Of a stretch of 64,000 bases of DNA, positions 10,235 through 23,286 are shown piece after piece. Position numbers and translations under genes: made by a program. Each line of letters starts with the position of its first letter. Within the stretch, counting starts at the first letter, position 1. The notes under the pieces were generated by a model. It did no database searches. It worked only from the letters and a program-made list of their open reading frames with translations, and was not told where the DNA came from. This stretch comes from an uncultured Prevotellaceae bacterium (GTDB lineage Bacteria > Bacteroidota > Bacteroidia > Bacteroidales > Bacteroidaceae): positions 9,856 to 73,855 of the forward strand of contig CADASP010000011.1 in the NCBI GenBank assembly GCA_902790625.1. Direction: 5' to 3'.

Positions 10235-13200
10235 TTAACGCACCACGAACTTCTTGCCTCCGACGACATACACGCCCTTTGGCAGATTGGCGGGGTTGGT
10301 GCCCACGTAGCGGCCGTCGGTGGTGTAGATGCGCAGTGTGGCGTTGTGGTCGAAGCGCACGCCGTTGATGCCGGTGATGGCCTGCACACCCTGCGGGGTG
10401 ACGTTCTCGGTGTTGCCCACGTTGTCGATGGCCAGCACGTAGAACGAGTATGCGTCGCCGTCGACATAGTTCTCCACGGCATAGTCCATCTCGCCAGCGA
10501 AGGTCTGTCCGTAGTAGGCGTAGTCGGCTCCGTTGTGCGATGCGAAGAGCAGATAGCTCTGCACACCCGAGGCGGCATCCTGCGACTGGCACTTCACGTG
10601 GATGGTGTTGGCAGCCGGGTCGTAGTCGGCCGAAGCCATCACCGTCACGGGTGGTGTGAGGTCGAGCGTGTTGGAGTAGACGTTGGTCTCAATGGGCAGG
10701 TTCTTGTCGAAGATGATGGTGGCCTTGTTGCTGATCACGGTGCCATCCTTCAGTCCGGGCTTCAGGTCGACCGAGAAGCTGACGTAGCCCTCGCCCTCGG
10801 GAGCGTTCACGTTGGGCGGCAGCTCGATGCCCTGGATGTCCCACGACAGCTTGTTGCCCTCGCGCTTCATCACCCAGTTGTAGCCCACGCCGTCGTGGCT
10901 GGTCTCGCCGAAGCGGACGGTGGAGACGTCGAAGACGTTCTCGTCGAGCTCGTCGCTGATGCGCACGCGGTAGGCGGCGTCGCCGGCCTCGGCCTTGTTC
11001 TCAAACAGGATGCGGTAGTTCACCGTTTGCGTCTCGCCGATGTAGTGCTGCTCGCCCACGCCGGCAGGACCCACCATCTCGTTGGGATCCCACGAGGCAA
11101 CGACATCGTTGATGGCGGCCTTGCCGTCGAGGATGTCGAGGAACTCATCGTCTATGTCGGTCTGGTAGATCCATCCGAAGACGTGCTGGCGAATGAGGCT
11201 GATGAGGGGACAGGTGGCATCGATGAGGTCCATGCCGCACAGCTCGGAGGCGCGCTTCAGCAGCTCGAGCACGCTGTAGGCGGCCATGCCCGTCTGCTCC
11301 TTCTCGTCGTTGAGCTGGTCCATCAGCTGCGACACCTTCAGTCGCTGCTCGCCGGTAAGCTCGTAGACGTCGCCGAGGCGGTGCACCACGTAGTCGCTCA
11401 CGTTGATGTGGCGGTCGGCGCCTTCCACATTGCCCAGGATGGCCACCACGGCGAAGGTGGTGGAGTTGACCACAATCTTGTTCTTGCCGCTGTAGAATTC
11501 GGTGTAGTCGCGGCTGTAGGCGATGTCGCCCTTACCCTCGCTGACCATGGTGAAGGTGTAGCTCTCCCACGGGTCGAGGCTGGGCACGAGGAACACGATG
11601 GTGTGCTGGCAGGTGGCGCCGTCGAGCACGGTGACGCTGTCGACGGGCAGATACTGCGTGCCTCGGTTGCTGGGCATGCGGAATCCCAGGATGTCGATGT
11701 TGTCGGTGGCGGTGATGCTGACGAGGAACTTGCCGGTCTTCTGTGCCGAGGTGTTGGTGATGGTGATGGGATTCTCGCAGGGCACGCCTTTGCGCACGGT
11801 GTTGCGGCCGCCAGTCATCACGGCGATGTCGCTGCTCACATTGGCCTGGCCCTCCTGGACGGGATTGCCGAAGGTGACGGCATAGCCGCCGTAGCCACTG
11901 TAGCGGGGCATATAGAAGATGTAGTGGCTGTCCTCGGTGTTCTTGTCGAGGTAGCTGATGGTGCCCGAGCTGCGCTCCAGCCGCAGGTCTTTCACCCTTT
12001 CGAGGATGGGTGCGCCATCGTCGCGGTCGCCCTTGTACTTATAGATTCCGACAACGCCGATGGACAGCGAGTGGCTGCTCTCCACATTTACCGTCACGTC
12101 GATTTGCCTTCCGTGCATCAGGCCCAGGTCGAACCATGCCTCCGTGGCAGCGTCGTTACCGCGATAGGCGTAGCCCATGGTACCCTGCACAGGCACGCCC
12201 TCCTGCAGGGTGATGCGGTTGGCAAAGTCGGTGTTGGTCATCTTCTGCTGGTAGAACGGGTTCTTGGTGAAGGTGCTCTTCACGGTATAGCCGCCGTAGC
12301 CGCCACGATGAGGCACGTAGAGATAGTAGGTGCCGGCGGCGAGGTCGTCGCGCTTGAAGACGAGGGCAGAGTCGGGATAGTCGAGCCACTTGCCTTCGCG
12401 CCTGACTGTTCCTGTGCCATCGGCATTGAGGGCGAGGATTTCAGCGTAGCCCAGCGTAAGCGTTTTCTCCGACTGGATGATGAAGCTGGCCGAGCCGTCG
12501 GCGGGCATCACGAACTGATACCAGTCTTGATTGTCTAAGGAATTGCTGTAGTCGTAGCCAAGGCGGCCCTGTGTGATGGTGCCGTTCTCAATGAGGGTGG
12601 TATTCTCCCACGAGTCGTTGCCGGCGATGTCGTTGGCAATGGCGCATGGGATGAAGTCGTAGGTGATGCGATAGCCGCCATAGCCTCCACGCAGGGGCAT
12701 GTAGAGATAGTAAGCTCCGGCGGCGGCGTTGTTCAGCTTGAAGGTGAGCGTGTCGCCCGGATGGTCGAGCCACTGGCCGTCGCGTCTGAGTGTGCCGGTG
12801 CCGTCGGCATTGGGCACGCTGATTTCAGCGTAGCCCAGGGTCAGCGTCTTCTCGCTGCAGATGGTGAGCTGGATGGCGCCCTCCTCAGGCACGTCGAGAC
12901 GGAACCAGTCGTGGTCGTTGAGCGAGTTGCTGTAGTCGTAGCCTAAGCGGGCCTCCTTGGTGGTGCTGGGCTCGATGATGGCGGCAGTGTCCCATGTGTA
13001 ATTGCCGGCAGCATCGTTGGCCATGGGACAGGGGATGAAGTCGTACTTCACGGTGTAGCCGCCGTAACCGCCACGGTGGGGCATATAGAGATAGTAAGCT
13101 CCGGCGGCAGCGTTGTTCAGCGAGAAGGTGATGGTGTCGCCCGGATGGTCGAGCCACTTGCCGTCGCGACGGATGGTGCTAGTGCCTTCGGCATTGGGCA

Positions 13201-14959
13201 CGCAGATTTCGGCGTAGCCCAGGGTGAGCGTCGTCTCGCTGCAGATGGTGAGCTGGATGGCACCCTCCTCGGGCACGTCGAGGCGGAACCAGTCGTGGTC
13301 GTTCAGTGAGTTGCTGTAGTCATAGCCTAAGCGGGCATCCTTGGTGGTGCCTGACTCGATGATGGCGGCAGTGTCCCATGTGTAATTGTCGGCAGCATCG
13401 TTGGCCATGGCACAGGGGGTGAAGGTGTATTGCAGCGAATAGGTGCCGTAGCCTCCACGCAGGGGCAAATAGAGATAGTAGTCGCCAGCGGCGGCGTTGT
13501 TCAGCACGAAGGTGAGGGTGTCGCCCGGATGGTCGAGCCACTGGCCATTGCGACGGATGGTGCTGGTGCCTTCGGCATTGGGCACGCAGATTTCACCATA
13601 TCCGATGGTTAGCGTCGTTTCGCTGCTGATGGTCAGCGTAATCTTGCCTTCTTCGGGCACGTTGAGCTTGTACCAGTCGTATATGTCCTTCGTGTTGTTG
13701 TAGTCGTAGCCCAGCTGGCCCGTCACGGCGGGGCCTTGTCGCAGCGGGGTGGCCGACACCCATTCATCGTTGGGCTCTGGGTCGGCCTCGGCACTGTGGC
13801 CCGTGAAATAGGAGGTCACGGTGTAGGTGCCGTATCCTCCGCGTAGCGGCATATAGAGATAATAGGTGCCAGCCGAGACGTTGGGCGTCTCAAACACCAG
13901 GGTGCTGTCGGGATAGTCGAGCCACTGTCCGTTGCGGCGATCCACGCCGGTCTGGTCGGCATTGAGCGCGCACAGCTCGGCATAGCCGATGGTAAGTGTC
14001 GAGTTGCTGCGCGCGACGATGGTCAGCTTGCCGTCCTCGGGCACCTCGATGGAGTACCAGTCGACCACATCCTGATTGTTATTGTAGGCATAGCCCAGGT
14101 GGCTGTTCTGTAGCACACCGTCGGCAAGTGGCGTAGCCGTCTGCCACGTGTCGTTCAGCTCGGGGTCGCTGTCGGTCACAGGCGGGATGAAGCGGTAGGT
14201 GAGGTGGTAGATGCCGTAGCCGCCGCGCCGTGGCATATAGAAATAGTAGGTGCCAGCTTGGCAGTTGGGCACTTCGAACACCAGCGTGGAGTCGGGATGG
14301 TCGAGCCACTGTCCGCCACGGCGCATCACGTCGGTACCTTCGGCATTGAGGGCGCAAAGCTCCACATAGCCAACGGTGAGGGTGGGTGCGCTGCGGAATT
14401 CGAACTGCACCTTGCCGTCCTTGGGCACTTCAATTTTGAACCAGTCCACGTTGTCCACGTCGGCCGGGGCATAGGCATAGCCCATGTGGCCGCCCAGCGT
14501 CACGCCGCTCTGCAGCAGGGGGCAGTCGTCCCAGGTGGCATTGGGCGTGGGGTCGGTCTTCACCGTCGGGGCGGTGAAGACGTAGGTCAGGCGGTAGGTG
14601 CCGCTGGCCTTGTCGTTCCTGGGGTTGGCGTGCATCTTCACCTTGTAGATGCCCGGCTTCAGGTTCGGACAGTTGAACGTGCGGTTCGAGCCGTCCACCC
14701 AGCTGAAGTCACGCTGCACGTTCTCGCCGTCGACGACGGCATAGAGCGTGATGTTCTCGCCACTGATGTTGCCCAGTGGCTCATGGGTGATGGTCACCTC
14801 GCCGTCTTCAGGCAGGCTGATGGTGTACCACACGTCGTGTACGTTCTTCGACACCGCTCCTGTTTTGCTGGTGCCGCTCTCCCAGTACTGCTGTGCCATG
14901 ACCCACAAGGGCGCTGTGAGCAGCAGTACGAGTGTTGTTAGTAATTGTTTGCGTTTCAT
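10235..14959 (-). CDS. Secreted surface protein with tandem PPC/collagenase-CBD-like domains, a DPNE-type domain and a T9SS-type tail
   Basis: Signal peptide (WVMA|QQ); 128-aa repeats EPND.W..A..L..G....G.LGY.Y...D..DW....AG.YY.Y.P.RGGYG.Y; SWDPNEMVGP..Y.I.FEN; tail IYTTDGRY..LPKGVYVVGGKKFVVR. Confidence 0.85.
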   Translation of the reverse strand: MKRKQLLTTLVLLLTAPLWVMAQQYWESGTSKTGAVSKNVHDVWYTISLPEDGEVTITHEPLGNISGENITLYAVVDGENVQRDFSWVDGSNRTFNCPNLKPGIYKVKMHANPRNDKASGTYRLTYVFTAPTVKTDPTPNATWDDCPLLQSGVTLGGHMGYAYAPADVDNVDWFKIEVPKDGKVQFEFRSAPTLTVGYVELCALNAEGTDVMRRGGQWLDHPDSTLVFEVPNCQAGTYYFYMPRRGGYGIYHLTYRFIPPVTDSDPELNDTWQTATPLADGVLQNSHLGYAYNNNQDVVDWYSIEVPEDGKLTIVARSNSTLTIGYAELCALNADQTGVDRRNGQWLDYPDSTLVFETPNVSAGTYYLYMPLRGGYGTYTVTSYFTGHSAEADPEPNDEWVSATPLRQGPAVTGQLGYDYNNTKDIYDWYKLNVPEEGKITLTISSETTLTIGYGEICVPNAEGTSTIRRNGQWLDHPGDTLTFVLNNAAAGDYYLYLPLRGGYGTYSLQYTFTPCAMANDAADNYTWDTAAIIESGTTKDARLGYDYSNSLNDHDWFRLDVPEEGAIQLTICSETTLTLGYAEICVPNAEGTSTIRRDGKWLDHPGDTITFSLNNAAAGAYYLYMPHRGGYGGYTVKYDFIPCPMANDAAGNYTWDTAAIIEPSTTKEARLGYDYSNSLNDHDWFRLDVPEEGAIQLTICSEKTLTLGYAEISVPNADGTGTLRRDGQWLDHPGDTLTFKLNNAAAGAYYLYMPLRGGYGGYRITYDFIPCAIANDIAGNDSWENTTLIENGTITQGRLGYDYSNSLDNQDWYQFVMPADGSASFIIQSEKTLTLGYAEILALNADGTGTVRREGKWLDYPDSALVFKRDDLAAGTYYLYVPHRGGYGGYTVKSTFTKNPFYQQKMTNTDFANRITLQEGVPVQGTMGYAYRGNDAATEAWFDLGLMHGRQIDVTVNVESSHSLSIGVVGIYKYKGDRDDGAPILERVKDLRLERSSGTISYLDKNTEDSHYIFYMPRYSGYGGYAVTFGNPVQEGQANVSSDIAVMTGGRNTVRKGVPCENPITITNTSAQKTGKFLVSITATDNIDILGFRMPSNRGTQYLPVDSVTVLDGATCQHTIVFLVPSLDPWESYTFTMVSEGKGDIAYSRDYTEFYSGKNKIVVNSTTFAVVAILGNVEGADRHINVSDYVVHRLGDVYELTGEQRLKVSQLMDQLNDEKEQTGMAAYSVLELLKRASELCGMDLIDATCPLISLIRQHVFGWIYQTDIDDEFLDILDGKAAINDVVASWDPNEMVGPAGVGEQHYIGETQTVNYRILFENKAEAGDAAYRVRISDELDENVFDVSTVRFGETSHDGVGYNWVMKREGNKLSWDIQGIELPPNVNAPEGEGYVSFSVDLKPGLKDGTVISNKATIIFDKNLPIETNVYSNTLDLTPPVTVMASADYDPAANTIHVKCQSQDAASGVQSYLLFASHNGADYAYYGQTFAGEMDYAVENYVDGDAYSFYVLAIDNVGNTENVTPQGVQAITGINGVRFDHNATLRIYTTDGRYVGTNPANLPKGVYVVGGKKFVVR
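12375..14310 (-). repeat. Six intragenic repeats at exact 384-bp period
   Basis: ggat(g/a)gtcgagccact at 12375, 12759, 13143, 13527, 13911, 14295. Confidence 0.9.
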
Positions 14960-15087: not shown

Positions 15088-15255
15088 TCACCACCCCATG
15101 TCGTCATCGTCGTCCCACTGCTTGTTGCGGAAACTGCGCGACTCGGCGCCTGACTGGTCGCCCCAGCCGCTGGGGTCGACGCTAACGGCGTTCATGAAGG
15201 GTTCGTCGTCGACTACTATGGCACAACGTGGCATTTCGTATTTCTTCTTTTCCAT
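15088..15255 (-). CDS. 55-aa small peptide not in the ORF track (MEKKKYEMPRCAIVVDDEPFMNAVSVDPSGWGDQSGAESRSFRNKQWDDDDDMGW)
   Basis: Hand-translated open frame; ATG 12 nt after the upstream stop with GGAGGAG in between; GC-rich third positions; K-K-Y-x-x-P leader and acidic Trp-rich tail. Confidence 0.7.
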   Translation of the reverse strand: MEKKKYEMPRCAIVVDDEPFMNAVSVDPSGWGDQSGAESRSFRNKQWDDDDDMGW

Positions 15256-15267
15256 GATTGCTCCTCC

Positions 15268-17892
15268 TTATTTAATATATAGTTTCTTTCCGTTGACAAT
15301 ATAAAGGCCCTTCTTTAATGACGAATTCCGAATTCCGAATTCCGAAAGGCAGCGGCCCTGCAGGTCGTAAGCACGTTCATTGTTCATCGTTAATCGTTCT
15401 GCGTCGGCGATGGCGGTTGTCGTCTCGTCCCAAATCAGGGTGATGGGGCGTGCTACGCTGACGATGCTGGCCGTTGGAATCTGCAGATAAGCCTTGTTGG
15501 CGGGCATCTTCACGTTGGCGTCGGCCTCCTGTATCTTCACAAAGTGTCCGCCCGTGAGCATGAAGTTGGTGAAGTCGCCATCAGTAGCCAGTACATGGGT
15601 GGCGGTGGTGACGGCCACGAGGCTGTTGTCGGCGATGGCCTCGGCGGCCTCGGTGGTGGTTTCAAGAGCGAAGGTCTGCCCTGCCTCGCCGCGCAGCAGC
15701 ACGCCGGTGGCGGCGGGAATCACGTCGCCCTCGATGGCCTGGATGGCGATGGTGCTGGCATCGGCATCGAAGGCAGTGCAGTAGTAGGCGGTGAGCCCTG
15801 CGGGCACGACGACGGCCTCGTCGGCGCTGAAGGTGCCTATGCCCGAGGCGGGCACGGTGAAGGCGTAGGTGGTGGTGCCCGATTCGGTGGTGACGGTCCA
15901 GCCTCCGGGGATGCCGTTGATTTGAATTTCGTCATCATAGTCGGTCGTAGGCACTTTCACGCTCCAGTCGGTACCGTCGGCCAAGACGAAGGTGCCCGTG
16001 GCGGGCACACCGGTGAGCCAGCCGTAAGTACTGTTCTCGGCCGAGATGTCAGTGGCGAGGCACTTCACATAGTTCAGGCTGGTGCAGCCGTTGAACATCA
16101 TGCTATAGCATCCTTCTACCAAGGTCTCGGCAAGCAGGTCGGGGGCTGTCGTCAGGCTGGTGCAGCCCATGAACATCTCGGAGTAGCAGCCCTCGGCCAG
16201 GATGGGGGCTGGCAGCGCGGGGGCTGTGGCCAGGTTCTCGCAGTTCATGAAGATGCCGTCGTAGCACATGTTGGCCAGTGTGGTGGCGGGCAACGTCGGA
16301 GCCAATGTGAGCGCCGTGCAGCCCCAGAACATGAAGGTGTAGCAGCCCTCGGCCAGCGTGGTGGCCGGCAGCGCGGGGGCAGCCGTCAGTGATGTGCAGC
16401 CGTTGAACATATCGTTGTAGCAATACGCGGTCATCACCTTTGCAGGAAGCTCAGGGGCGCGTGTCAGACCAGTGCAGCCATTGAACATCGAATTGTAGCA
16501 GTAGTCGGTGAGCGTCGTAGCTGGCAGCACGATGTCCTTGGTGGGATGGTTCTTGATGGTGGTGTTCGGTTCCCATTGGTTGCAGAACAAATCGCTGAAG
16601 CAATACTCGTCGGTCAGTGTGGTCTCGGTGGCGAATGTCGTGGAGTGGAGCAGACTCATCACATTGCCATAGACGTAGCAGTCGTTGGAACAGACAAAAT
16701 AATAGTGCTCCCAGTTCTCCGAGTCGTAGCAGCTGGGGTTGTCGCCACGGAAGCTGATGACATCGTTGGCAGCCAAGGCGATGTCTTCATCCCATGTCAC
16801 CTCAGTCCAGCTTCCGTCGTTCAGCTTGTACTGGATGGGCTGGATGTACCCTGAGGGGGCGTCGCCGTAGTAATCGTACTTCACCGTGATGGTTCCTGCC
16901 TCCACGGCCTCGAAGGTCAGTGGCTCACCTGCCATGTCAGTGGCTTCGCTGGCTTCTTCCACCGTCCAGCCTTCGGGGATGCCGTCCACCTCGTTCCATT
17001 CGCCCTGCGGCCCTACTGTCCAATCGTTCATGCCTGCGGCCTTGACGAAGGTGCCCGTGGCAGCTACACCTGTCAGCCATCCACCCGTGCAGCCCTCGAT
17101 AGAGATGTCGGTGGCCAGGCACTTCACGTAGTTCAGCTTCGTGCAACCATTGAACATCCAGCTGTAGCCCTCCGAGGGAACGCTGGCAGCGGGCAACTCG
17201 GGCGCTCTCTCCAGGTTGATGCAGTTGGAGAACATCTGATGATAGCAGCCCCAGCCCAGGTCGGTGGCGGGCAGTTCTGGCGCACGCGTCAGCCCTTGGC
17301 AGCCGGAGAACATATACATATAGCCGCTGCGGGTGACGTTCATGGCTGGCAGCACGATGTCCTTCGTGGGGTGGTTCTTGATGGTGGTGTTGTCCTTGGG
17401 TGCCCAATCGTCTTCCGATACAGGAGTTGTGAACAAAAAGGCGAGGTTGATATCCATATCCCACTCCTCGTCGCCTCCAACGATGGGCAGCGTGGTGAGC
17501 GTGGGATAGCCCGTGGAGCTGATGAGGCTCATCACATTGCCATAAATATAGACATCATTGGTGGCGGTGAAACGGGTGTACTGCTCCTTAAAGCTCCATT
17601 CGTCGGGTGCCAACATGCCATAGGCAGGGTTGTCGCCTCGGAAGCGCACCTGGTCGCCAGCGGCCACGGGGATGCTGATGGGGTTGCTGCTGGCTGCAGT
17701 CCATGTGGCACCGTCCTTGCTGAATTCTATCGTCAGCAAGTTGGGGTTGACGATGTTGATCGTCCCCGCCTCCACGGCCTCGAAGGTGAGCGGCGTGGCG
17801 GTCATGTCGTCGGCCTTCGTTCCCATGGCGGTGGCCATGAGCGCGAGCAGTGAGAGCAAAATTCTCTTGAAGTAACGTTGAATTTGTTTCAT
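15268..17892 (-). CDS. Secreted BspA/TpLRR-like leucine-rich-repeat surface protein, two modules, T9SS-type tail
   Basis: Signal peptide from ATG 17892 (MKQIQRYF...TKA|DD); 26-aa repeats LPATTL..xCY..MF.GCT.L..AP; duplicated PLTFEAVEAGTI and LNYVKCLATDIS..WL.GV.ATGTFV; tail KKGLYIVNGKKLYIK. Confidence 0.85.
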   Translation of the reverse strand: MKQIQRYFKRILLSLLALMATAMGTKADDMTATPLTFEAVEAGTINIVNPNLLTIEFSKDGATWTAASSNPISIPVAAGDQVRFRGDNPAYGMLAPDEWSFKEQYTRFTATNDVYIYGNVMSLISSTGYPTLTTLPIVGGDEEWDMDINLAFLFTTPVSEDDWAPKDNTTIKNHPTKDIVLPAMNVTRSGYMYMFSGCQGLTRAPELPATDLGWGCYHQMFSNCINLERAPELPAASVPSEGYSWMFNGCTKLNYVKCLATDISIEGCTGGWLTGVAATGTFVKAAGMNDWTVGPQGEWNEVDGIPEGWTVEEASEATDMAGEPLTFEAVEAGTITVKYDYYGDAPSGYIQPIQYKLNDGSWTEVTWDEDIALAANDVISFRGDNPSCYDSENWEHYYFVCSNDCYVYGNVMSLLHSTTFATETTLTDEYCFSDLFCNQWEPNTTIKNHPTKDIVLPATTLTDYCYNSMFNGCTGLTRAPELPAKVMTAYCYNDMFNGCTSLTAAPALPATTLAEGCYTFMFWGCTALTLAPTLPATTLANMCYDGIFMNCENLATAPALPAPILAEGCYSEMFMGCTSLTTAPDLLAETLVEGCYSMMFNGCTSLNYVKCLATDISAENSTYGWLTGVPATGTFVLADGTDWSVKVPTTDYDDEIQINGIPGGWTVTTESGTTTYAFTVPASGIGTFSADEAVVVPAGLTAYYCTAFDADASTIAIQAIEGDVIPAATGVLLRGEAGQTFALETTTEAAEAIADNSLVAVTTATHVLATDGDFTNFMLTGGHFVKIQEADANVKMPANKAYLQIPTASIVSVARPITLIWDETTTAIADAERLTMNNERAYDLQGRCLSEFGIRNSSLKKGLYIVNGKKLYIK

Positions 17893-17924
17893 AATGATAC
17901 GTGTTTGATGAATTAATCTGGTTG

Positions 17925-17932
17925 CAAATTTA
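17925..17932 (-). promoter_or_regulatory. -7 element (TAAATTTG) for the LRR gene, with no consensus -33 TTTG at 19-21 bp
   Basis: caaattta on + strand; the expected -33 position reads non-consensus. Confidence 0.65.
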
Positions 17933-17973
17933 AGCAGAAAAAGCAAAAGAATAACCGTTGAAATGGCGTTTTT

Positions 17974-18004
17974 TGACGAACTGCCCCCTGCGAATGACGA
18001 ACTG
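17974..18004. promoter_or_regulatory. 10-bp direct repeat TGACGAACTG x2 at 21-bp period; candidate LytTR binding site
   Basis: tgacgaactg at 17974-17983 and 17995-18004, between the divergent promoters. Confidence 0.65.
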
Positions 18005-18035
18005 AATGCCTAATTCCACATTTTTTTGCCTTTTT

Positions 18036-18067
18036 TTTGCCCGTTCCGTATTTTTGTCGTACTTTTG
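18036..18067 (+). promoter_or_regulatory. Canonical -33/-7 promoter of the LytTR regulator gene
   Basis: TTTG (18036-18039), 20-bp spacer, TACTTTTG (18060-18067). Confidence 0.75.
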
Positions 18068-18071
18068 CAAC

Positions 18072-20498
18072 ATGCAAACAACGCGGCGAACCATCCTTTT
18101 GATGCTGGCACTCGGCTGCTGCCTTCTGATGCGGGGGCAGATGTTGAGCGACCTCACCTATCGGCGCTACACCGTGCAGGACGGTCTGCCGCAGATGCAG
18201 ACCGAACGGTTGTGGCAAGACTCGCGCGGATATATATATGTGGGTACGCTGTCGGGCTTCGTGCGCTTCGATGGCCGTGCCTTCACCCCCTTCCTCAAGG
18301 GTCGCCGCCTGAACATCGTGGGGTTTGCCGAGGTCGATGACAATGGTGCTCCCCTGCATGGCCATGGCGAGGTGAGGGCGCTGGGATTCTTCCGGCAGTG
18401 GACGGTGGACTACGACGGCGTGGAGCCGCTGCCCCTCGACGAGGATGGCCACTGGCTGCTGAACAACCTGAATGCCGGCAGCCTGCCCAACGGCTACGTG
18501 CTGATGGAGGACAGCCTGGAGCAGCAGCGGCGGCTGTGCCTGATGACGCGGCAGACCATCACCCCCGTGTTGGCACATCCACTGCTCGACACGATGACCC
18601 CCGACCGCAAGCTCTACTACGACCCCGAATCAGGCGAAGCGATAGCCCCCACAGAGCAAGGGACCTTCCTGCTGAAGCCTGACGGGGGACAGCCCACCAA
18701 ACTGTGGGACAAAACCGACGTCTACACCCTGCTGCGCACCGACTCGGCCCTGCTGGCCTTCGCCTCCGACGGCATTTATGCCTGGCAGGGCGACAGTCTG
18801 CGACTGCTGACCCAGGCCGACTGGACGGCGGCCAGCTATGGACTGACGGTGAGGAAGATACGCACGGACTGCGTGGTGGCCGACGAGCACAGCGTGTATC
18901 TTTGCGATGGCGAGGGCGTGCACCAGGTGGTGACGGGCATCAATCTCATCCGCGACGTGCTCGTCGACCGCTGGGACCGCCTGTGGGTGGCCACCTATCA
19001 GGGCGTCTACTGCTTCTTCACCCGCTGTTTCACCAATCATCAACTTGCTGACGAGAACGACATTGTGAGAGCCGTGGCCGCTTGTGGCGACGGACGACTG
19101 TTGATGGGTACGCTCAACGGCAAGCTGATGGTGCGCAGTCAGCGGGGCGCCACCACCATCGTCGACGACAATCCCGAACAGTTCTATGCCCCCAGTGCTG
19201 CCAAGGTGGGCGATGAGGTGTTCATGGCCGGCAATGGCGACGTGGTGGCCATCACCACGCATAACGACACCACCGCCACCCTGCGCTGGATAGGCTTGCC
19301 CCGCGACCGCTACCAGTTTGTGGCCTCGGCATGGGGCCGGGTCATTGTGGGCAGCCGCACCACCATCAGCGCCTACGACCCCGCCACAGCCACCATCGAC
19401 ACGCTGACCACCACCATCATACATCCGTGGTGCGCCGCACAGGATGCCAGCGGCAAGCTGTGGATAGGCAGCAGCGGGGGACTCTACTGCATCGACAAGA
19501 ACCGTCAAATGAGCAAGGTGGAATATGGCCAACAGAAACTCGTTGTCAGCGCCTTGGCCATCGACCAGCGGGGCAACATCTTCTTCGCCTCGGCCGACTC
19601 GCTCTTCTGCGTGGTCGACGGTCATGTGGCATCACTCACCCCTCAGATGCCGCAGCTCAGCGGCCACGAGGTGCGCTCGCTCCACCTGTCGCCACGGGGC
19701 TTCTTGGTGGCGGCGGTTGTCGACGGTCTGTTTGTCTGCCATGTCGACGACAAGGGTCGTCTCAGCGACCAGCGGTTCTTCAACCACCTGAATGGCTTCA
19801 CCATGACCGAACCGCTGAAGGCGGTGATGGCCGAAGAGGACGACGGCACCGTGTGGCTGCCCGGCATAGAACAGATGACCTCCTTCCGCCCCGAAGAGTT
19901 GCTGGCCTACAGCGAGGAAGACACCTACATCGCCCCGCCGCTGGCGTGGTGGCAGCACTGGTGGGTGTGGGCGCTGGTGTTGCTAACTGTGTCGCTGATG
20001 GTGTGGGCCGCCACCCGTTGGCATGAGAAGAGGGTGAACCGGAAGCGCATGGTGAAGCTGCAACGCGAGAACATCCAGCGCGAGGAGCAGATAGAGGCCA
20101 TACGCCAGAAAGCCATCGGCGAGGCCGACAGCGAGCTGGCCAAGGACATTGTGAAGATGACGGAGAAGACCTTTGCCGAGCGGCTCACCCTGCGCACCGC
20201 CAGCGGTACCGTCGTGGTGGAGGTGAAGGACATCGCCTACTTCAAGGGCGAGGGCAACTACTCGCAGCTGGTGACTTTCCACCACAACGACATGGTGCTG
20301 ATGGGCCTCGGTGCCTTGGAGAAGATGCTCAGCCCCGAGGTGTTTGTGCGTGCCGACCGCAGCACGCTGCTCAACATCCACCATGTGAGCAACCTGCTGC
20401 CCAAGCAGCGCCGCTGCATCTTCCGCTCGCCCGGTGGTCAGGAGGTGGAGACCACGCTGCTGGCACCCGCCTTCAAGCGTCTGGAGTATCTGCTGTAG
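18072..20498 (+). CDS. Membrane-spanning one-component regulator: periplasmic beta-propeller (Reg_prop-like), TM helix, LytTR DNA-binding domain
   Basis: Signal peptide; YTVQDGLPQ..LWQDSRGYIYVGT and D..G.LWIGS..GL propeller motifs; TM WWQHWWVWALVLLTVSLMVWAA; C-terminal DIAYFKGEGNYS...FVRADRSTLLN. No His-kinase or receiver motifs. Confidence 0.85.
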   Translation: MQTTRRTILLMLALGCCLLMRGQMLSDLTYRRYTVQDGLPQMQTERLWQDSRGYIYVGTLSGFVRFDGRAFTPFLKGRRLNIVGFAEVDDNGAPLHGHGEVRALGFFRQWTVDYDGVEPLPLDEDGHWLLNNLNAGSLPNGYVLMEDSLEQQRRLCLMTRQTITPVLAHPLLDTMTPDRKLYYDPESGEAIAPTEQGTFLLKPDGGQPTKLWDKTDVYTLLRTDSALLAFASDGIYAWQGDSLRLLTQADWTAASYGLTVRKIRTDCVVADEHSVYLCDGEGVHQVVTGINLIRDVLVDRWDRLWVATYQGVYCFFTRCFTNHQLADENDIVRAVAACGDGRLLMGTLNGKLMVRSQRGATTIVDDNPEQFYAPSAAKVGDEVFMAGNGDVVAITTHNDTTATLRWIGLPRDRYQFVASAWGRVIVGSRTTISAYDPATATIDTLTTTIIHPWCAAQDASGKLWIGSSGGLYCIDKNRQMSKVEYGQQKLVVSALAIDQRGNIFFASADSLFCVVDGHVASLTPQMPQLSGHEVRSLHLSPRGFLVAAVVDGLFVCHVDDKGRLSDQRFFNHLNGFTMTEPLKAVMAEEDDGTVWLPGIEQMTSFRPEELLAYSEEDTYIAPPLAWWQHWWVWALVLLTVSLMVWAATRWHEKRVNRKRMVKLQRENIQREEQIEAIRQKAIGEADSELAKDIVKMTEKTFAERLTLRTASGTVVVEVKDIAYFKGEGNYSQLVTFHHNDMVLMGLGALEKMLSPEVFVRADRSTLLNIHHVSNLLPKQRRCIFRSPGGQEVETTLLAPAFKRLEYLL

Positions 20499-22248: not shown

Positions 22249-23286
22249 ATGAACCGATATTTATCATTTATCATTTTCCGTTTGTCCTTCAGCGTAGCGC
22301 TCTGTGTGGCGCTTTGCTTCACGCTTTCGTCCTGCGTCGACGAGGAGGAACTGCCCGACACACCGACGGGGAATTTCGAGGCGCTGTGGCGCATCATCGA
22401 CGAGCACTACTGCTTCCTCGACTACAAGCAACATGAGCTGGGAGTGGACTGGCAGCAGGTGTACTATAAGTATAAGGAACGCGTGAACGACAAGATGAAC
22501 GACCTGCAGCTCTTCGAGGTGCTGTGCCAGATGCTGGGCGAGCTTCGCGATGGGCATGTGAACCTCTCGGCGGCCCACGACTACGGACGCTATTGGAGCT
22601 GGTTCGAAGACTATCCGGCCAATCTGAGCGACTCGCTGCTGCGCGTCTATCTGGGCACCGACTACAGGATTGCTGGCGGTTTGGACTACCGCATCCTTGA
22701 CGACAACATCGGCTATGTGCGCTACGACAGCTTCACATCGGGCTTCGGCGAGGGCAACCTCGACGAGGTGCTGATGCATCTGATGCTCTGCCAAGGGCTT
22801 ATCATCGATATCAGGGGCAACGGGGGAGGCAACCTGACCAATGCCGACATGCTGGCCGCCCGCTTCTGCCACGAGAAGACCCTCGTGGGCTACACGCAGC
22901 ATAAGACGGGACCAGGCCACAACGACTTCTCAGACTTGCAGCCCCATTATCTGGAGCCTTCGAAGAACATCCGCTGGCACAAGCCCGTGGTGGTGCTCAC
23001 CAACCGCCACGTCTTCTCGGCGGCCAACGAGTTCACCATGTATATGAAGGCTCTGCCGCAGGTGAAGGTGGTGGGCGACCATACCGGCGGCGGTGCTGGC
23101 ATGCCCTTCTCGTCGTCGTTGCCCAATGGCTGGAGCGTGCGCTTCTCAGCCGTGCCCACCTACGACGCCCAGCGCCATTCCACCGAGTTCGGCATCGAAC
23201 CCGACTACTACGTCAGCCTCACCGACGATGACTTCCGGCGTGGCCGCGACACCATCATCGAGTTCGCCCGCCAGTTGCTGAGATGA
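22249..23286 (+). CDS. S41 family peptidase lipoprotein (tricorn C1 + S41)
   Basis: Lipobox LSSC; NFEALW.IIDEHYCF, L.DGHVNL, IIDIRGNGGG, FSAANEF, VGDHTGGG, GIEPD. Confidence 0.9.
   Translation: MNRYLSFIIFRLSFSVALCVALCFTLSSCVDEEELPDTPTGNFEALWRIIDEHYCFLDYKQHELGVDWQQVYYKYKERVNDKMNDLQLFEVLCQMLGELRDGHVNLSAAHDYGRYWSWFEDYPANLSDSLLRVYLGTDYRIAGGLDYRILDDNIGYVRYDSFTSGFGEGNLDEVLMHLMLCQGLIIDIRGNGGGNLTNADMLAARFCHEKTLVGYTQHKTGPGHNDFSDLQPHYLEPSKNIRWHKPVVVLTNRHVFSAANEFTMYMKALPQVKVVGDHTGGGAGMPFSSSLPNGWSVRFSAVPTYDAQRHSTEFGIEPDYYVSLTDDDFRRGRDTIIEFARQLLR

Follow-up and report, generated by a model that had tools for sequence, protein, structure and literature searches.

The regulator gene and its product

The window analysed here (64,000 nucleotides of an uncultured Prevotellaceae bacterium; assembly GCA_902790625.1, contig CADASP010000011.1, positions 9,856 to 73,855) carries the gene of an 808-amino-acid protein, P0002, which belongs to the LytTR family and to the transmembrane (TM) one-component regulators, its membrane localisation being predicted. 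No kinase or receiver gene lies beside it at this locus. A 179-bp divergent intergenic region (17893-18071) separates it from the oppositely oriented gene of a signal-peptide-bearing protein, P0003, and contains a pair of direct repeats that is the predicted operator of the regulator. The regulator gene and its parts are as follows.

18072-20498, forward strand: regulator gene P0002, 808 amino acids (signal/anchor, putative double propeller, TM segment, long helix, LytTR domain)
18141-19886, forward strand: predicted periplasmic sensor, residues 24-605; all-beta, fits two propellers, lacks a Y_Y_Y domain
19947-20120, forward strand: predicted TM helix (about residues 626-648) extended as a cytoplasmic helix to residue 683, from the AlphaFold2 model, hydrophobicity and kinase homology
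20121-20177, forward strand: fusion junction or linker, residues 684-702 (GEADSELAKDIVKMTEKTFAE), of low model confidence
20178-20495, forward strand: LytTR DNA-binding domain, residues 703-808 (PF04397)

Pfam placed the LytTR domain (PF04397) at residues 712-786 with 45.2 bits against a cut-off of 22.6, and detected Reg_prop (PF07494) with 32.2 bits against 20.4. Neither the Pfam nor the NCBIfam scan gave a match to HisKA, His_kinase, HATPase_c or Response_reg, the latter library returning sub-threshold echoes of PorZ and AgrA and nothing else. The protein has two hydrophobic segments only, at residues 7-26 and 629-648, the second being followed by RWHEKRVNRKRM, a positive-inside flank. With 52 homologs as input, AlphaFold2 gave a model (mean predicted local distance difference test score, pLDDT, of 84) that shows continuous four-stranded blades over residues 24-605, where pLDDT is mostly 85-93, then a single helix (626-683), a low-confidence stretch (680-702) and a beta-rich domain (704-807). 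Since the best Foldseek matches of the sensor are the periplasmic domains of BT4663 and BT3049 (E ~1e-22, TM-score ~0.5, ~670 aligned columns), it is best read, on the model, as a double propeller without Y_Y_Y. With the AgrA and 3D6W LytTR structures the LytTR part gives a full-length but weak alignment (E ~0.01). The original prediction, a periplasmic propeller followed by a TM helix and a LytTR domain with no HisKA, HATPase or receiver (REC) motif, stands as regards the TM-LytTR architecture and the missing kinase and receiver domains; the sensor looks like a double propeller and not a single one, and where a short coiled coil had been read the model predicts a long helix.

Among the 52 sequences (56-81% identity), more than 150 positions distributed over the propellers, the helix and the LytTR domain are invariant, and in the TM and cytoplasmic helix region these include W626, W627, W631, E652, I677 and R678. 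The conserved LytTR motif FxRxHRS reads FVRADRS in P0002.

The open reading frame (ORF) is open over 18006-20498. The start was taken as the ATG at 18072 because the orthologs begin there and because a conserved promoter sits between 18006 and 18072; the ATG at 18006, which abuts the operator and lies upstream of that promoter, was rejected.

18036-18067, forward strand: regulator promoter as read from the sequence; -33 element TTTG (18036-18039), 20 nt, -7 box TACTTTTG (18060-18067)

TTTG, 20 nt and TACTTTTG make up a canonical Bacteroidota promoter, as had been predicted for this gene, and 4 nt separate the end of this box from the ATG. In most orthologous loci and in the related kinase genes described below, the end of the -7 box likewise lies 4-5 nt ahead of the ATG. 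The regulator mRNA may be leaderless or nearly so.

The intergenic repeats and the divergent promoter

The features on which the regulatory argument turns lie between the two start codons.

17974-17983, no strand assigned: predicted operator repeat 1 (TGACGAACTG), nearer the divergent promoter
17995-18004, no strand assigned: predicted operator repeat 2 (TGACGAACTG), nearer the regulator promoter
17932-17925, reverse strand: -7 box TAAATTTG of the divergent gene as read from the sequence, 41 nt from repeat 1

The two repeats, each of 10 bp with an 11-bp spacer, were found exactly as first described, with a period of 21 bp, and are the only exact copies of TGACGAACTG in the window. Counting both strands, the 4.14-Mb genome contains 21 copies of the 10-mer by itself; a TGAYGAAC pair with the same spacing is found at one other place, a microsatellite. 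The repeats span 42-72 bp upstream of the divergent -7 box, where the earlier reading had them at approximately 40-70 bp, and no TTTG occurs at the canonical spacing of 19-21 nt from the TAAATTTG box. They overlap neither promoter and end 31 nt before the regulator's own -33 element. The centre of the proximal repeat falls at about -59 of the divergent promoter and about -70 of the regulator promoter. The reverse complement of the repeat, CAGTTCGT, fits the published LytTR consensus, [TA][AC][CA]GTTN[AG][TG], at 8/9 positions, and in this orientation the site points toward the divergent gene.

Canonical LytTR sites consist of two repeats of ~9 bp spaced 10-13 bp apart, and most of the regulators that bind them activate from upstream of the -35 element (PMC11347149). 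Repeats of 10 bp at a 21-bp period match this geometry, in agreement with the original prediction. The proximal repeat of AgrA is placed at ~-60 (PMC4227749).

Conservation of the repeats

The comparison drew on 44 loci from rumen Prevotellaceae genomes and 12 from sampled genomes. Forty of these loci are of the fused type, that is, with a P0002-like regulator of 50-92% protein identity, and one of the 40, L041, has no upstream sequence. The pair [TG][GT]AYGAA-N14-[TG][GT]AYGAA, with the consensus form TGAYGAAC-N13-TGAYGAAC, was found upstream of the regulator in 36/40, with diverged flanks; conservation in orthologous intergenic regions had been set in advance as the observation on which the operator would stand or fall. 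The regulator's own -7 box begins 56-58 nt past the second core in 35 of these 36 loci. Toward the other side, the -7 box on the reverse strand, which reads CAAAnnTA when written as plus strand, is separated from the first repeat by 41 nt in 24 loci; one further locus has 40 nt, and three have 51-52 nt, the longer gap being the shorter one plus one helical turn. In the anchored alignment high information is confined to the promoter boxes, a portion of the spacer and the motifs TTTTTGAYGAACTG and GTGAYGAACTC; the other intergenic bases have diverged. At the level of sequence comparison, the TGAYGAAC direct repeat is thereby shown to be under selection and to be fixed in its spacing to two divergent promoters.

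A weight matrix was prepared from 27 loci, the window and its 92% relative being left out. The window site scores 53 bits, while the rest of the 4.14-Mb genome reaches at most 12 bits, so that the genome scan proposed with the original prediction returned a single strong site. Further sites suggested by exact, degenerate and matrix scans of this genome were rejected as 7-bp microsatellites or matches in coding sequence. The pattern-matching microsatellites are C4:114951, C5:129170 and C8:126296. As an observation in its own right, intergenic arrays of 7-bp units at C5:129150-129200, C8:126296-126340 and C4:114940-114990 resemble the core (TGACGAA, TTACGAA, TGATGAA) and match a 21-bp-period pattern trivially; one of them lies directly past the stop codon of a cargo gene bearing the C-terminal tail described below. 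In the genome of the window the regulator is local, with a single predicted operator.

These distances also bear on the sign of the regulation. P0002 might act as a repressor or roadblock at one or both of the divergent promoters, relieved by a ligand, in the manner of CoxC, a membrane MHYT-LytTR protein that represses through three direct repeats (PMC11347149). The CoxC operator, however, overlaps the -35 element, whereas the repeats here stand 41 nt and 56-58 nt from the two -7 boxes. The divergent promoter, moreover, has no -33 element, which is common among activator-dependent promoters, and the alternation between 41 and 51-52 nt, differing by one helical turn, fits contact with RNA polymerase on a specific face of the DNA. 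On these grounds repression is regarded as quite unlikely. Ligand-dependent activation in both directions is favoured, by analogy, because the repeats overlap neither promoter, because the position of the proximal repeat resembles that of AgrA, and because most LytTR regulators activate upstream of -35.

Descent from a kinase/response regulator pair

The nearest non-fused relatives of P0002 are proteins of 866-901 amino acids, 42-48% identical over its residues 24-682. They have the same sensor followed by a His_kinase domain of the LytS type (PF06580), with HATPase_c in at least L035, and each is followed by an adjacent gene for a REC-LytTR response regulator. Residues 24-682 of P0002 are 48% identical to residues 36-701 of the L035 kinase, the alignment running through LQREKxQKxLQIxAIRLKxI and ending, with AIRLKSI, at the residue before the PHFH box. 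Beyond that point P0002 reads GEADSELAKDIVKMTEK...RLTLRT into the LytTR domain, and its residues 702-796 are 40% identical to the LytTR domain (residues 136-230) of the response regulator in L035 (34-45% for the response regulators that partner the related kinases). As both alignments break there, P0002 corresponds to the kinase up to its H-box joined to the regulator from the end of its receiver. Since the regulator gene directly adjoins the kinase gene in the same orientation, a single deletion would yield the fused arrangement. Taken together, the alignments show descent from a pair consisting of a propeller LytS-type kinase and a REC-LytTR regulator, with everything from the H-box through the end of the receiver lost.

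In a tree of LytTR domains, 37/37 fused domains fall into one clade (100/99) nested among the regulators of LytS-type kinases, with the partners of more distant, Y_Y_Y-bearing kinases as outgroup. The sensor tree, with the same outgroup, has a three-way split without resolution, and rooting there gave a trichotomy. The LytTR tree supports one fusion event between cognate partners, which is the simplest reading.

The upstream regions of the two types can also be compared. Seven kinase-type loci have three TGAYGAA cores with a 21-bp period, in 5/7 of them at -119, -98 and -77 from the kinase ATG; in the fused type the cores lie at -98 and -77 from the ATG. Because the repeat nearest to the divergent -7 box in L035 is also 41 nt from it, as in the fused type, the fused type has lost the distal repeat together with 21 bp, while its spacing to each of the two promoters is preserved. 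In the outgroup systems a variant, TACAYGAA, is present in two or three copies with the same 21-bp period. The sequence of the site thus follows the DNA-binding domain while its phase stays the same, and this covariation with the LytTR lineage argues that the LytTR domain is its predicted reader.

In one subclade of the kinases (L050, L051 and L052) no TGAYGAA repeats are present upstream; these kinases sit behind a co-oriented gene that ends in dockerin-like DVNGDGKVDISD repeats and a strong hairpin. Given that arrangement, their operator, if any, would lie elsewhere.

Size and distribution of the family

In rumen metagenomes the fused family comprises more than 600 clusters at 90% identity, full length being kept. 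The few clusters with source names are called LytTR family transcriptional regulator, in metagenome-assembled genomes (MAGs) of Prevotella or Bacteroidaceae, or ligand-binding sensor protein. When the helix-linker-LytTR module was compared with 1.84 billion representatives, seven were found at E<=1e-30, the others being ordinary response regulators of 250 amino acids, and the fused module is therefore a narrow lineage. It is carried by 19/301 genomes of the taxonomic family and by 0/15 other species of the genus to which the window belongs, and no paralog was found in the window's genome. The regulator is common in another genus of the family, and the closest copy (92% identity) is from a water-buffalo rumen Prevotella MAG. 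This distribution suggests that the regulator-operator-cargo module was acquired horizontally.

A loss of the entire phosphorelay combined with so patchy an occurrence might be expected of a signal-blind remnant of a two-component operon deletion, constitutively active or inactive, whose sensor is dead. The sensor is nevertheless retained at full length in the clusters counted above; the invariant positions extend over sensor, helix and LytTR domain alike, no frameshifts were seen, and there are at least two deep clades. Full length, invariance, intact frames and deep clades point to long-term selection on the sensor, and a dead remnant is scarcely credible.

Divergent genes and candidate regulon

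The genes on the left of the operator, all on the reverse strand, are the following.

15268-17892, reverse strand: divergent gene P0003, 874 amino acids; signal peptide, GCTxLTxAPxLPA repeats, C-terminal tail YDLQGR...KGLYIVNGKKLYIK
15088-15255, reverse strand: ORF for a 55-residue acidic peptide (MEKKKYEMPRC...DDDDDMGW), 12 nt past the stop codon of P0003, preceded by GGAGGAG
10235-14959, reverse strand: PPC-repeat/DUF7619 secreted protein P0001, 1574 amino acids, with the same C-terminal tail

P0003 had been taken for a leucine-rich repeat (LRR) protein. It has no Pfam match, with no LRR hit even at E<=10, and its LRR identity lacks support from hidden Markov models (HMMs); a longer ortholog in L001 does contain LRR_5 (PF13306; 34 bits), and the targets in L016, L026, L034, L035 and L060 score 108-795 bits with this model, so that the designation has HMM support for this ortholog and for those targets. 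In ~28 loci the divergent gene specifies a signal-peptide protein. The complete proteins range from 157 to 1664 amino acids, one truncated ORF exceeding 1860, and their classes include BspA-type LRR_5 proteins (L016, L017, L026, L034 and L035) and several without a Pfam match. Nearly all end in YDLQGRRVxxPxKGIYIxNGKKVIVK. The window and L001 share one cargo class and the sister pair L003 and L008 another; with close regulators adjoining different cargo classes, the cargo gene appears to have been exchanged next to a conserved switch.

The repeat element is tied to the cargo promoter as well, since orphan sites front cargo genes without an adjacent regulator. In one, G220 (L060), the BspA LRR gene for a protein of 1373 amino acids (LRR_5, 795 bits) has a -7 box with a two-repeat site 40 nt away, and in the other, G019 (L062), two divergent tail-bearing genes flank a three-repeat site. 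Conversely, the divergent gene has been lost in L005/L038, L012, L022 and L025, with the repeats kept at the usual distance from the regulator promoter. Autoregulation by the repeats is likely, considering that they outlast the loss of the divergent gene and that their spacing to the regulator's own promoter is fixed. On the left of the operator in L005, L038 and L012, word repeats of the AGTCAACC / GTCAACCGGCTGAC type occur at ~100-200 bp, which suggests that the end of an insertion or rearrangement replaced the cargo promoter in these loci.

The same loci could be taken to mean that P0002 regulates only itself, the divergent gene being an unregulated neighbour and any true targets lying elsewhere or being absent. 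The repeats survive without the divergent gene in L005, L012, L022 and L025, and the distance to the regulator promoter is the most constant feature of all. Yet the spacing on the divergent side is no less constrained, with the 24 loci mentioned at 41 nt from the -7 box, and is kept in the three-repeat kinase loci; the orphan operators are found at cargo genes; and no other strong site exists in the genome of the window. Autoregulation alone is accordingly judged very unlikely, and activation of both the divergent gene and the regulator remains the preferred reading.

The ORF of 55 residues is retained 12-13 nt behind homologous cargo genes in L001 (56% identity) and L010 (49%) and has no second copy in the window's genome. 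It is probably co-transcribed with the target gene. Ahead of the PPC-repeat gene there is a terminator-like hairpin (15023-15009) and a -7-like TAATTTTA box, for which reason this gene probably has its own transcription start. The earlier suggestion that it is a target is weakened by this and helped by L021, where a PPC-repeat/DUF7619 homolog of the 10235-14959 gene is itself the direct divergent target; its place within the regulated unit at the window locus is uncertain.

The tail is shared by at least 60 proteins of the genome, which are nearly all large and mostly carry a signal peptide; it has the form YDLQGRRV, 6-15 residues, KG[IL]Y[IV]xNGKKV[IV]VK and in the window is encoded at 10235-10330 and 15268-15350. 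Six C-termini gave no match in NCBIfam at E<=1, Pfam does not recognise the tail either, and the identification of the tail as a type IX secretion system (T9SS) C-terminal domain (TIGR04183/Por_Secre_tail) was rejected at the HMM level. A genome scan with TIGR04183 matched ~15 proteins, mostly a different set from the tail-bearers. The tail, of 26-45 amino acids, resembles only the last strands of a T9SS sorting domain, and its AlphaFold2 model (pLDDT 62) is too poor to use. The genome does encode SprA and GldM. The tail may be a shortened T9SS sorting signal or a different signal.

Proposed mechanism

We propose that P0002, tethered to the membrane, acts as a one-component activator both of its own gene and of the divergent gene for a surface protein; to this reading of the sequence evidence we give a probability of about two in three. 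The TM and cytoplasmic helices, parallel and inherited from a dimeric kinase, would hold two LytTR domains together, and through the flexible 20-residue junction these would occupy the two repeats head to tail. A ligand bound at the propellers would shift the register or spacing of the helices and thereby alter DNA binding. As the sensor fold is that of the glycan sensors among the hybrid two-component systems (HTCS), the ligand would by analogy most likely be a glycan. Once bound, the regulator would activate the divergent promoter that lacks a -33 element, the transcription unit probably including the 55-residue ORF and possibly the PPC-repeat gene, and would feed back positively on its own promoter.

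Several points weigh against this proposal. We infer the direction of regulation from the position of the operator alone. The repeat pair is absent from L020, L031 and L054, for which the full upstream sequence is available, and the sensor tree is compatible with two fusions or a fission. Public RNA yielded few contigs, of 150-330 nt, over both genes and no usable 5' ends, and two of the contigs cross predicted starts; these could be DNA carry-over or read-through. The signal-transmitting Y_Y_Y domain of BT4663-type sensors is absent from P0002. The low confidence of the modelled 20-residue junction obscures how a movement of the helix would be relayed to the LytTR domain. Lastly, direct repeats call for head-to-tail domains, whereas a parallel helical dimer is symmetric, and the flexible linker must allow for this.

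The last difficulty would disappear if the DNA-binding domain were set free. In such a proteolytic scheme, of the anti-sigma or CadC-like kind, a signal would cause the protein to be cut within the TM helix or close to it, and the liberated LytTR fragment would bind the repeats. The probably flexible, low-confidence segment between the long helix and the LytTR domain would suit it, and a gene for an S41 peptidase (22249-23286) lies 1.7 kb downstream of the regulator, though without a link to it. Against this, no conserved protease gene turned up among the orthologous loci examined, the strongly conserved helix of kinase origin looks more like a signalling helix than a simple tether, and other membrane LytTR and ToxR-type regulators work while membrane-bound (PMC11347149, PMC10269533). 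Proteolysis is therefore thought unlikely; it is in any case a variant of the same model as the favoured one, in which the intact membrane protein acts.

A wider reading, somewhat less likely than not, is that the family of P0002 represents a natural short-circuit of a two-component system. One deletion would have joined a dimeric sensor kinase, severed just ahead of its phospho-acceptor histidine, to the DNA-binding domain of its cognate response regulator, leaving a periplasmic signal relayed to the same operator without phosphorylation. In rumen Prevotella the regulator and operator, like their kinase-bearing ancestor, would then form a portable switch next to which secreted adhesin-like cassettes (BspA LRR, PPC-repeat and others) that share one unrecognised sorting tail are exchanged.

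Comparison with known systems

The closest systems are the pairs of propeller LytS-type kinase and REC-LytTR regulator of rumen Prevotellaceae (L035, L036, L039, L046, L048 and L049). They have a homologous sensor, TM/signalling helix and LytTR domain, and they share the TGAYGAA repeat, its 21-bp period, the promoter distances and a tail-bearing, BspA-like divergent target. The pairs keep PF06580, HATPase_c, a separate receiver and three repeats; P0002 has none of these, being one polypeptide with two repeats.

AgrA, ComE and PlnC resemble P0002 in the LytTR domain, in the 9-10-bp direct repeats two helical turns apart upstream of the promoter with the proximal one at ~-60, and in positive autoregulation, which is likely here (PMC4227749, PMC11347149, PMC6193735). 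Unlike them P0002 has neither receiver nor kinase partner and is predicted to be tethered to the membrane. HTCS proteins (BT4663, PDB 4A2L/4A2M; BT3049) have the same sensor fold and likewise combine sensor and DNA-binding domain in one membrane protein, but with Y_Y_Y, HisKA, HATPase, receiver and AraC output, none of which is found in P0002; sequence identity is ~14%.

Membrane one-component regulators are a surveyed and recognised class (PMC10269533). CoxC, ToxR, CadC and TcpP are, like P0002, membrane-anchored and kinase-free, and CoxC binds direct repeats of the LytTR type (PMC11347149). CoxC differs in its seven-TM gas-sensing domain and in repressing at a -35-overlapping operator, and the ToxR-type proteins have an N-terminal winged helix and the opposite topology. 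None of the four has a propeller sensor, and no direct two-component ancestor is documented for them.

Autoregulation is usual for LytTR systems, and autoregulatory direct repeats are known from the LytTR regulatory systems (LRS), including Bacteroides TM-LytTR proteins (PMC6193735). HdrRM, BrsRM and the LRS-like systems of Bacteroides share with P0002 a kinase-free LytTR protein and such repeats; the Bacteroides LRS-like regulators have TM segments and 11-bp repeats 11 bp apart (PMC6193735). LRS, however, need a separate, co-operonic membrane inhibitor, and the neighbours of P0002, a DUF1846 gene as the next gene downstream and the divergent secreted protein, include no such partner. P0002 is hence neither a two-component system nor an HTCS nor an LRS, since the defining parts of each were tested for and are absent. 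A literature search for propeller-LytTR proteins, or for LytTR control of T9SS cargo or of surface-protein genes of this kind, found nothing specific.

P0002 is of unusual value because the phosphorelay from which it descends still exists alongside it and has the same operator. If the proposal is correct, a phosphorelay and a phosphorylation-free descendant would be available that have in common the sensor, helix, DNA-binding domain, operator and kind of target, so that the share of two-component signalling carried by helix geometry alone, and the way in which a one-component membrane regulator can arise in one step, become testable. It would further imply that ~60 proteins per genome carry a C-terminal tail missed by current T9SS models. 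For an abundant and unstudied family of regulators in rumen Prevotella it would provide a precise predicted operator and regulon, the latter consisting of secreted BspA-like surface proteins that probably mediate attachment.

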